Source of the DNA: Mobula hypostoma
Taxonomy: Eukaryota
Assembly: GCF_963921235.1 (NCBI RefSeq)
Contig: NC_086108.1
Span: forward strand, 14,694,001-14,758,000
Direction of reading: 5' to 3'
Length of the DNA stretch: 64,000 nucleotides
Made by a program: the position numbers and the translations under genes. The notes below the pieces were generated by a model, which saw only the letters and a program-made list of their open reading frames with translations, made no database searches and was not told the origin of the DNA. Within the stretch, counting starts at the first letter, position 1; each line of letters begins with the position of its first letter. Of the stretch, positions 24,590 through 28,660 are shown in pieces.

Positions 24590-26175
24590 TCCTGTCAGAA
24601 TAAAAGGCAAGGATTACAAGAAAACCTTGTTTTTTGAGAGATATGGAGACCTAGTTAAGCAAAAGAAGGACGTACATAGCAGAATTGGCTGGAAGGAACA
24701 AATGAGATCTTGAGGAGTGTAAGAAATACAAGAGAACACGAGAAGGAAATCAGGGCTAAAAGACAGGATGAAATGCTCTCGCGAGCAAGATGCAGGAGAA
24801 TCCCAAAGGCTTGTACAGATATATCAAAAATAAAAGGATAGCAAGTGACAAAATTAGTCCTCTTAAAGATCGGAGTGGTCATGTATGCATGGAGTCAAAA
24901 GAGATGGGGGAGATGTTTTGCATCTGTATTTACTTGTGAGACGGACACAAAGTTCATAGAAGTGAGGCAAAGCAGCAGTACAGATTACAGAGGAGGAGGG
25001 TTTGCTGTCTTGAGGCAAATTAAGATGGATAAATCCCCAGGGCCTGACAGGGTCTTCCCTCGGACTTTGTGGGAGGCGAAATCGAAGGGGCCCAAGCAGA
25101 GATATTTAAAAGTCTTTAGTACCAGGTGAGGTGCCGGAGAAAAGTTGTTGAAGGCAAGATAATGGGTGTTATCAACATGGACCTTAGCTAAGCCTTTGAT
25201 AAAAAGGCCAAAAAGGTTCAGTGCCTTGGTATTGAATTGGATTAGTCATTAGCTTCATGGAAGATGCCAGAGAATGGTTGCCTCTCTGATTGCAGTGTCC
25301 AGTGGAGTGCCACAGGGATCAGAATTGGGTCCGTTATTGTTTATCATTTATATCAGCGATCTGTATGATAATGTGGTTAACTGGATCAGCCAATTTGCAG
25401 ACAGCGAGGAAGTTCTACCAAAGCTTGCAGCGGGATCTGGACCAGCCGGAAAAATGGGCAGATGGAATTTAACACAGAAGTGTGAGGTGTAATTCTGAGA
25501 GGACTAACATGGATGGTGGTAGGGCACTGAGGAGTACGGTAGAACAGAGGGATATGGGAATACAGATACATATTCCTTAAAAATGGCATCTGAAGAGGTT
25601 TGGAATAGAGTCTGTACCATGCAGCCAATGAATAGCTGGGACTTATTTAGATAGCCTTGAAAGAGAGTATTTGGCACATTGGCCTTCATAAATTGAAGTA
25701 TTGAGAACAAGAGTTGGGATGTTATGTTGAAGTTGTATAAGACGCTGGTGAGGCCTAATTTGGAGTATTGTGTGCACCCACCTATAGGAAAGATATCAAT
25801 AAGATTGTAAGACTGCGGAGAAAATATATCAGGATGTTGCCAGGACTGAAGGAGCTAATTTATATGGAAAGGTTGAAGACATCTGGACTTTATTCCCCGG
25901 AGCGTAGGAGAATGAGGGGAAATTGGATAGAGGTATACAAAATCATGAGGTCTATAGAATGGGTAATTGCAAGCAGGCCTTTTCCATTGAGGTTGAGTGA
26001 GATTAGAACTAGAGGTCATGGGTCAAAGGTAAAAAGTAAAATGTTTAAGGGGAACATGAGGGGGATCTACTTTACTCATAGGGTGGTGAGAGTGTGGAAC
26101 AAGCTGCCAATGGAAGTGGTGGTTGCAGGTTTGATTGCAACATTTAAGAGAAATTTGGATAGATACATGGATGAG
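24590..26175 (+). mobile_element. Degenerate CR1 LINE
   Basis: DKSPGPD, SGVPQGSELGP, FTHRVVRVWNKLP. Confidence 0.85.
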
Positions 26176-26176
26176 A

Positions 26177-26360
26177 AACTCCACAATGGATGGGTCCCAA
26201 GCCCTGCTGCAAAAGGAGGACGGTTGGCTATGAGGCTAGCAACCCCTTCTCTTGAAAACCCAGTGCTACGGAAACATCAACACAAGCTTCAAAGACCTCA
26301 TCCCTGAGAAAGGAAGGATTTTTGAAGATGGGTTACACCTACATTTGGGCGAAGATGAAC
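26177..26360 (+). mobile_element. Short RTE-type element beginning with a degenerate twister ribozyme (26177-26227)
   Basis: AA-CTCC-ACAAT..TGGG-TCCCAAGC-CCTG..AAAA-GGAG-GACGG-TTGG followed by the RTE-like leader ggctagcaacccc. Confidence 0.7.
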
Positions 26361-26379
26361 GGTAGAATGGGAAGATGAG

Positions 26380-28660
26380 CAGTATAAAGAGGAGAGGGGG
26401 AGTGACGAAGAGTAGAATGGGAAGATGATAAGTATAAAGAGGAGAGGGAGAGTGATGAGAGACCATCCTGAGGTGATTGGAGGACAGAGGGAAGGATATA
26501 GGATTACAGACAGGTCGAGCTAGGCGGGGGGGTGGGTGGATTTAGGGGACAGAGGCAATTGGATAGCAAATTGAGGTAGATGGAATAAGGTGAAGGGTGA
26601 AGGTTAGAGATAGCTATGGGAGGATGATAAATAGGAACACAAAGAGCTGCCAATGCTAGAGTCTGATAACTGAGCCAGTAATGGGCTCTTGCTTCACTAA
26701 ACTTAACTTAACTCCTTGATTCCATCCTGTCTTCCCTTGTTCATTCCTTTCCACCTACTTGCAGGACACTTCACATGCATTCCATCACTTTGATAACTCC
26801 CTATTCGCTGGCTCCCATTGCTTCAACTTCACTGTGGATATTCAGTAGTTATACACCTTCAGTCCCCCATCGTGATAGTCTTAGAACTCTGTTTCTTTCT
26901 GCAACAAAGGCTAAATCATTTTCTCTCCACCAACACTCTCATTTGCCTGGCTGAACAACTCTTGGCTCCACTCACTTCTTACAAATCAAAGATGTAGACA
27001 TAGGTATCTAAATAAGCCCCAGTTATTCATTGGCTGCATGGTACAGTCTCTATTCCAAACCTTCACAGCTCTTTCTCTGTTACAGCAATGACTGTGTTGG
27101 TGTTGCTTCATGCATCCATGTGGAATTCATCAATTTATCACCTTCACCACAAGCTTCCACCCTCCCGTCAAATTTACGTGGACTATTTCTGAAACTTCTC
27201 TCCCTTTTCTAGTTCTCTCTGCCTCCTTCTCAGAAGACAAACTATCCACTGCTATTTACTATAAATGCGCTACCTCCCACAGCTACTTAGTCTACACCTC
27301 TTCCCACCTTGTCTCTTATTGCAGTGCCATTTGTCATCCCTTACTCCTAGTTTCTCTATCAATGCCACATCAGCTCTCAAGATGAGGCTTTCTGTTCCAG
27401 GACATCTGAACTGCCCTCCATTTTCAGGAATCATGCTTTCCCTTCCGCTGTGGTTCACTGTCAGGTCACTTGTCTGAGTGCTACTGGTACCATGTAACCC
27501 AGTACTACCTGTCGCATGGTTGGGTGGTCGGCGACTAAACTGGCTCTCCTACCAGGCTTGCCTGGTGAGGAGGGTGGTTAGACACCCTGCAGGACGGATG
27601 AACCTCTTGTAGGGTCAATGGCCATCTACCAAACACGTGCCGTGAAGCGCAGCAAGGGCATCCCTTGCATTGAAGCTTGGTCTGGCCATTCACTGCAACA
27701 GAACTTCCCCCAGCTGTCTTGGACTCCACCATGCCACTGGATCAGGGAAAGGATGTCGAGAGGGTGGGTCTGGACCTGTGCAACCCCTACTCACCTAAAA
27801 TCCATTCACGCACACGCTGTTCCTTTTAGGAAACTGAAGGGAACCATCATCATCCTATGGGATGGATAGCCAGAGAGGTTGATGGAGCCCAATCATGTTT
27901 CTCATACTTCTGCTCTCGTCCCACCTCCTCCCAGACAGAACAGTTCCCCTGATTCTTACTTTTCACCCTACCAGCCTCCATACCCAACACATCACCCGTT
28001 ATCATTTCCTCCAGAGGCAATGAGATCTCACTGCCTTTCCCTTCCCACCTTACACAGTGACAACTCACTCTGTGACACCATCATTCATTTGCTCAGACCT
28101 CCCAGCCACATCTCCCTGACCCCAACACATTTGCTTGCAATCACAGGAGATGTGACACTTGTCCGTACACCTCCTCTCTCACCATCATCCAGGCACTTAA
28201 GTAGTCTCTCACTCTCTCCCTCTCTCTCCCCTCCCCTCCCCCTCCCTCTCCCCACCTCCCTCCACCCACTGTACCTGATATGTCTCCTCTCACAACTGGT
28301 TCCATCTGTCCTTCACCTCTCCCATAATAGTTCCCACGTTCACCTCCTTTACTTAGCCAACTCCAGCACTGGTAGCCCTTGTGTTCCTGCTTATCTTCCT
28401 CCAGCCATGTCTCCAACCTTCACCCTTTCCTACCCTCATTTCACTGCCTCTGTTTTCCCTTTGATTGATGCTACTCAGCATCACCTACCATTGTCTCCCA
28501 ACTCTACCCACCTGCCACAGTCCACTAATATCTCAATTCCTCTCTTATCACTCCCCCTTTATTCTTTTACTGACCCTCTTCAGTCTTTCTGCAAGGTTTT
28601 GGCACGAAATATCAAAAATTCCTTTCCCCCAACAGATGCTGCTCAACCTGCTGAGTGTCA
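26380..28660. mobile_element. Old PLE (short - arm, long + RT/UTR arm) split by an RTE-type element
   Basis: FTTSFHPPVKFTWTISETSLPFL RT motif near 27140-27210; CT-rich UTR; pLTR tail near 28590-28655. Confidence 0.7.
27465..27870 (+). mobile_element. Non-autonomous, probably RTE-type element with a (CAT)n tail and a possible HDV-like 5' fold
   Basis: GC-richer insert interrupting a PLE; gcaacccctactcacctaaaa leader motif; catcatcatc end. Confidence 0.5.

Follow-up and report, generated by a model that had tools for sequence, protein, structure and literature searches.

Results

A decayed twister head at the end of a dispersed repeat

The window analyzed here is the whole stretch of 64,000 nucleotides from Mobula hypostoma (contig NC_086108.1, positions 14,694,001 to 14,758,000, forward strand). 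Its position 26177 marks the start of a short element whose first part, judged by its sequence, is a decayed twister relic and a real motif (Table 1).

Table 1. Features in and around the short element (positions of the window)
Position	Strand	Feature	Basis
25228..26176	+	Host repeat, likely insertion target; 3' region of a LINE, presumably of CR1 type	Repeat copies compared
26172..26176	+	Flank from which the 5' P1 strand and the -1 base (A) would have to come	cmscan
26177..26227	+	Decayed type-P1 twister head without P3 stem, from the AA 3' of the scissile bond	Sequence, cmscan, family comparison
26177..26322	+	5' part of the short element, LINE 1-145 (5' UTR), 80% identity to LINE majority	
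26323..26340	+	Start of the 3' part (last RTE ORF codons); main-class junction; copy breaks off	
26341..26700	+	Unrelated sequence past the break	

Direct reading of the head places the AA at 26177-78 and the pairing strands of P2, which is intact, at 26179-82 (CUCC) and 26215-18 (GGAG). The L4 loop UCCCAAGC occupies 26195-26202 and UUGG is found at 26224-27. The general acid (A, 26177), the A following it and the general base (G, 26219) are all kept. Both pseudoknots are mismatched, one at 26183, where the L2 GC has become AC, and the other at 26221, where a C turns GAGGG into GACGG. The first-pass annotation had read the twister layout and the GACGG mutation from the letters, and both are borne out; the P4 that it gave as UGGG/CCUG is likewise present, but it is a decayed form of the CGG/CCG of the family majority. 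The change in the L2 GC had escaped that annotation. Altogether, the window head differs from that majority at 20 of 146 positions and carries one inserted base. According to cmscan, the flank preceding the AA pairs with UUGG at three of four positions, two of them as G-U.

When 1.5 kb around the head were compared with 4227 Rfam families by cmscan, twister-P1 (RF03160) ranked first at the head with 24.5 bits (E 0.019). The Rfam gathering score for this family is 67.2 bits; with a value so far below it, the window copy alone is weak evidence. The Rfam check proposed at first pass was extended to 62 genome candidates, none of which reached the gathering score; the best attained 46.9 bits (E 3.7e-6) and nine had E≤0.001. 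Seven metagenome heads that lack P3 and match the core pattern exactly also scored only 37-42 bits, and two P3-bearing heads reached 62.6 and 68.1 bits. The missing P3 therefore accounts for much of the shortfall, and routine annotation would miss such a head because it scores under the Rfam cut-off. Energy folding of three heads with nested pairs only yielded no twister fold and energies no better than those of shuffled sequences (z -0.05 to +1.4). Since this method cannot model a double pseudoknot, the outcome is uninformative and lends no support either.

The insert was proposed to start with the AA that directly follows the scissile bond, and it does: the host repeat stops at 26176, and its other genome copies continue differently from there. 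At its other end the copy is truncated. It holds family positions 1-163 of about 252 (26177-26340), with only 18 nt of the 3' part remaining, and the earlier claim of a full-length copy has to be withdrawn. Neither the last ~90 nt nor the tail of the element was found anywhere in the window, the 3' remainder of the host repeat was not found after the insert, and a credible target-site duplication is lacking at this copy. A 7-nt match (GATGAGA at 26454) was rejected as a duplication, being short and in a GA-rich setting with no element tail before it and no host repeat after it. From these absences we infer that a single later deletion probably removed the 3' ~90 nt, the duplication and the remaining 3' end of the host repeat. 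From about 26370-26430 onward another dispersed repeat matches with 66-83% identity.

Two further observations concern the surroundings. Just past the element break, a GA-rich unit of about 50 nt occurs twice, head to tail, in 26361-26460. A 58-nt stretch of the downstream repeat (27005-27062) has an inverted copy with 95% identity at 25596-25653 in the CR1-type fragment, 1.35 kb apart, apparently the product of a repair event with local templated insertion.

A family of short elements in the genome

A search of the same genome with 26150-26450 as the query yielded at least 1,883 candidates (a rough lower bound), 40 of which were scored, and the matches were confined to 26177-26340. Thirty loci align as an element of about 252 nt ending in AAG/TAAG repeats, and most short copies are 83-92% identical to the family majority. 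The exact 32-letter head pattern has 59 matches in the genome and none for the reversed control.

The majority head combines AA, P2 (CUCC/GGAG), the L2 GC, P4 (CGG/CCG), the loop UCCCAAGC, GAGGG and UUGG, and thus possesses the GAGGG and the L2 GC that the first-pass annotation had named as the test of its proposal. Its P2 and P4 stems and its L4 loop are formed, its pseudoknots are complementary (GC/GC and CCC/GGG), and the general acid A, the following A and the general base G are present. A C-NNN-G stub stands where P3 would be, and the outer pair of P4 is an A-G mismatch.

Individual copies have lost much of this. At position 7, 25 of 52 copies have G and 23 have A, which is taken as CpG decay; retention across copies is 48-71% for the six CpG-scored positions, 87% for the general-base G and 89% for the non-CpG core. 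All seven scored features are retained by three of the 52 copies. Intact natural copies include L002, L015, L020 and L098. As the losses follow CpG decay and so few copies retain every feature, the family presents itself as a set of fossils, and its decay looks neutral as far as sequence can tell. In one short copy (L055:846-1447) a 40-nt head unit is expanded in tandem about 12 times. An origin as a tRNA-derived SINE was considered and rejected: ARAGORN, which can miss decayed heads, reported no tRNA gene in six of six loci, and the head is the 5' end of the LINE described below.

The partner LINE and the bipartite make-up of the short element

Two loci of a tail-selected set (29 copies taken from at least 2,404 candidates of a 3'-end query) extend upstream into a reverse transcriptase frame. 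With the body of this LINE as query, 37 candidates were found in the genome, again a rough lower bound. The same twister head lies within 1.5 kb upstream in 17 of 29 loci selected in this way, starting at positions 1-3 in eight and within position 9 in 11; head and tail are present together in six of the 29. The LINE is about 3.1 kb long with an ATG at position 160, and its majority aligns with residues 1-996 of the 1004-aa protein P0003 (Exo_endo_phos, RVT_1, DUF6451) at 63-69%. A single ORF of about 1000 aa with an endonuclease followed by a reverse transcriptase conforms to RTE-clade architecture. From this architecture we take the partner LINE to be a probable member of the clade. In a protein search its named relatives came from bony fishes, molluscs and amphioxus, and no named RTE or Perere-3 protein was among the matches. 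Three stop-free pieces of decayed LINE copies had no match in Pfam. In one LINE copy (L087:224-483, LINE strand) a unit of about 64 nt that contains the 3' half of the twister is repeated in tandem about four times.

The short element consists of LINE 1-145 and the last ~105 nt, that is, its 5' part is the LINE 5' end and its 3' part is the LINE 3' end including the AAG/TAAG tail. It is protein-less, in agreement with the RTE-type, non-autonomous insert proposed at first pass. One main junction is common to 57 of 77 short copies and 20 of the 77 fall outside its bin; five of the 77 join LINE 180-230 to about +32 of the tail. The loose 13-mer used for junction work is common in background sequence (54 of 156 windows), so its matches were counted only at the expected place, by eye. 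Amplification as a unit is evident from the shared junction and from target-site duplications at 17 of 60 copies (see below). A second class of short elements (L005, L093, L094, L097, L099, L100, L227) retains LINE sequence beyond the ATG, as far as 180-230, and has a later junction with the tail, a sequence arrangement suggesting more than one origin by deletion.

Most copies begin at the scissile AA

Among head-selected copies, 28 of 29 start at positions 1-3, a figure that the query itself favors. In the tail-selected set, 16 of 29 copies start there by strict local alignment and 22 of 29 reach the head when inspected by eye, so that 5' ends pile up at AACTCC as had been predicted; the remaining copies comprise two LINE pieces, two copies cut at 88 and 143 and three ambiguous cases. 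No pair among 60 5'-intact copies has eight of ten upstream bases in common, and the element thus contains nothing upstream of the AA.

Of 80 5'-intact copies, the 60 with a locatable 3' end were entered into a duplication test. Target-site duplications of 10-16 nt that end at the AA were detected for 17 of the 60, compared with none or one per swap when flanks were exchanged 20 times. The boundary is thereby located to within about ±2 nt, and no duplication was seen for the other 43 copies.

The base preceding the AA is T in 36 of the 80 5'-intact copies (background 30%, p 0.003; in the last batch by itself, 11 of 28), and in 10 of 17 copies the right-hand duplication is followed by A; these biases hint at T|A junctions and at microhomology with the AA of the element. 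With T in excess before the insert, insertion might tend to restore the canonical U|A site. A selection of targets for pairing with UUGG was not seen, the mean being 1.10 contiguous pairs in 52 copies and 0.93 in the background.

Twister heads on related genes in metagenomes

The twister pattern was found at 106 metagenome loci. Their heads comprise 66 distinct sequences, of which 39 lack P3. An RTE-like gene follows in 26 of the 51 loci with at least 600 nt of downstream sequence. These genes are 23-73% identical to P0003, near-duplicate loci included, and the closest ones begin at about the same distance from the head as in M. hypostoma. The pattern fixed the core and left variation to the outer P4 pair and the P3 stub; in the 39 P3-less heads the former is C-G in 36, A-G in two and A-U in one, and the stub has the form C...G in 34. 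Because these loci were chosen by their twister core, they show spread and not covariation.

Selection by protein gave three outside loci in genome contigs, none with a 5' end, and none in viral contigs; at the sole protein-picked outside locus with upstream DNA, which is 5'-truncated, no twister was present. Three metagenome loci (L129, L160, L180) appear, by eye, to contain twister-headed short units with flanking duplications, the unit of L160 measuring about 107 nt. Other loci, in which P1 is long and complete and the AA is preceded by G or T (L106, L113, L154, L156, L178, L197; L119, L163, L168, L183), look like twisters in a setting other than retrotransposon heads. RTE-like sequences in contigs labelled bacterial (L248, L249, L250; P0012) are probably host contamination.

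Discussion

The head found in the window is mutated and likely inactive; very probably it belonged to a short non-autonomous element, built from LINE 1-145 and the last ~105 nt, whose RNA a twister ribozyme would have cut from host read-through transcripts. On the observed side stand the bipartite make-up, the head shared with the LINE, starts at the scissile AA, unrelated flanks with adjoining duplications and short AAG/TAAG tails. By analogy with Perere-3 and the R2 SIDEs, a source copy would be transcribed from a host promoter. The twister, for which P1 is dispensable, would fold with whatever flank lies upstream and cleave N|AA, thereby fixing the 5' end. The endonuclease/reverse transcriptase of the LINE may then bind the 3' ~105 nt and copy the RNA into a new site in trans, as analogous elements suggest. 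Each new copy would arrive without a 5' P1 strand of its own and borrow one from its target, and most copies would afterwards decay neutrally.

The main rival regards the ribozyme as vestigial: cleavage fixed the 5' end in an ancestor, and the family is transcribed from an internal promoter at the same A with the twister as a passenger. Start positions by themselves do not separate a cut from a transcription start, and LINE 5' ends can drive transcription (Kojima 2018, PMC5786205). The A-G outer pair of P4 in the family also points in this direction, although mismatches in P4 are mostly tolerated according to CHiTA (PMC11662667). We nevertheless consider this reading improbable, since the majority is intact at all catalytic and pseudoknot positions and a promoter start exactly at the scissile bond requires either coincidence or a history of cutting.

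Still less probable is it that the window copy itself has remained an active ribozyme or has been co-opted. It retains the catalytic bases and P2, its flank offers three of four P1 pairs, and C-C is reported among the better tolerated PK2 mismatches (CHiTA, PMC11662667). Both of its pseudoknots are mismatched, however, a combination that was not tolerated in the same study, and the departures from the majority counted above (20 of 146 positions and one inserted base) add to this. As paired pseudoknot defects were not tolerated in CHiTA, the copy is probably inactive and, from its sequence, probably dead, an ordinary fossil. A singular origin of each short copy from LINE RNA, through skipping on the template or a subsequent deletion and without a self-moving RNA family, can be largely excluded: several junctions exist (20 of 77 outside the main bin, including the five from LINE 180-230 to ~+32), but 57 of 77 copies share one, the head query returned 1,883 candidates and the tail query 2,404, compared with 37 for the LINE body (all rough lower bounds), and the short units are flanked by duplications.

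If an RNA freed by a twister and moved by the LINE is accepted as the source of the family, the sequences described here would bring a large, CpG-depleted animal genome into the range of twister-headed RTEs, so far shown for Schistosoma, together with a protein-less twister-headed derivative in likely thousands of copies. LINE and mini-element with their common head form a clean pair for asking whether a ribozyme alone can replace the promoter of a short retroposon. A wider proposal has, in our estimation, an even chance of being correct: a P3-less twister scoring under the cut-off may be the standard 5' end of a widespread animal RTE lineage far beyond Schistosoma that repeatedly spawns promoter-less parasites of 100-260 nt. 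Repeated spawning would be expected of a head that can release any attached RNA from whatever host transcript contains it, and the idea draws on at least two junction classes in M. hypostoma and apparently independent ones in the metagenome loci L129, L160 and L180. Should it be true, the lineage would provide a role for many eukaryotic twisters whose function is unassigned and offer a test of Kojima's question why RTE yields bipartite elements.

A search of the literature by titles and the beginnings of abstracts returned no twister-headed non-autonomous RTE and no vertebrate twister RTE, while Repbase and the supplements of CHiTA and Liu 2021 could hold the family. One supplementary file of Liu 2021 (PMC8501958) contains no match for the family head. 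HDV-like and hammerhead cases are listed in PMC6765202, and PMC10085705 holds nothing relevant to the present question. In its main text, CHiTA 2024 (PMC11662667) mentions retrotransposition once; it reports active twisters from fishes and describes P1 as dispensable. Twisters that lack P3/L3 or P5/L5, the architecture to which the family head belongs, are a recognized class there, with 217 active members in the benchmark. Liu 2021 (PMC8501958) and CHiTA 2024 (PMC11662667) describe tolerance toward changes in P1 and at the -1 base but not in the pseudoknots.

The closest known system consists of the T-variant twisters of Perere-3, an RTE-clade element of Schistosoma mansoni, and the processing of RTE 5' ends by twister, invoked already at first pass, is published for it (PMC8501958). 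Cleavage there leaves a 5'-AA end with any -1 base, and the duplications supply P1 (Liu 2021, PMC8501958). As in the family described here, the element begins at the cut-site AA with adjoining duplications, takes its 5' P1 strand from the target, has its ATG about 150 nt downstream, encodes endonuclease and reverse transcriptase in a single ORF and ends in a short-repeat tail (PMC8501958). The family majority equals the Schistosoma twisters in Table 1 of Liu 2021 in AA, P2, L2 GC, L4, GAGGG and UUGG (PMC8501958). It differs in that the C-NNN-G stub replaces the P3 stem and the 3' linker is longer by 3 nt; moreover, the abundant form is a ~252-nt protein-less derivative whose copies are old (mostly 83-92% identical to the majority).

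In Bov-A, RTESINE1/2, WALLSI3 and RTE-N2_Lch, RTE 5' and 3' ends are likewise joined by internal deletion without a small-RNA head (PMC5786205, PMC7245038). Kojima has suggested that 5' ribozymes may explain the occurrence of such derivatives in RTE, Ingi and R2; the ribozymes cited in the relevant sections are HDV-like (Ruminski 2011), and no twister is named in them (PMC5786205, PMC7245038). The R2 SIDEs of Drosophila resemble the present elements in combining a 5' ribozyme with the 3' recognition end of a LINE and in being moved in trans (Eickbush and Eickbush 2012, PMC3414825), but they possess an HDV-like ribozyme, a fixed target in 28S rDNA and few copies, whereas the family described here has a twister, no fixed target and likely thousands of copies. 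Each piece is thus already known: an RTE headed by a twister (PMC8501958), bipartite RTEs for which a link to ribozymes has been proposed (PMC5786205, PMC7245038) and ribozyme-headed deletion derivatives (PMC3414825). As the same trick has been shown in the blood fluke, the family is a further example and not a new principle.
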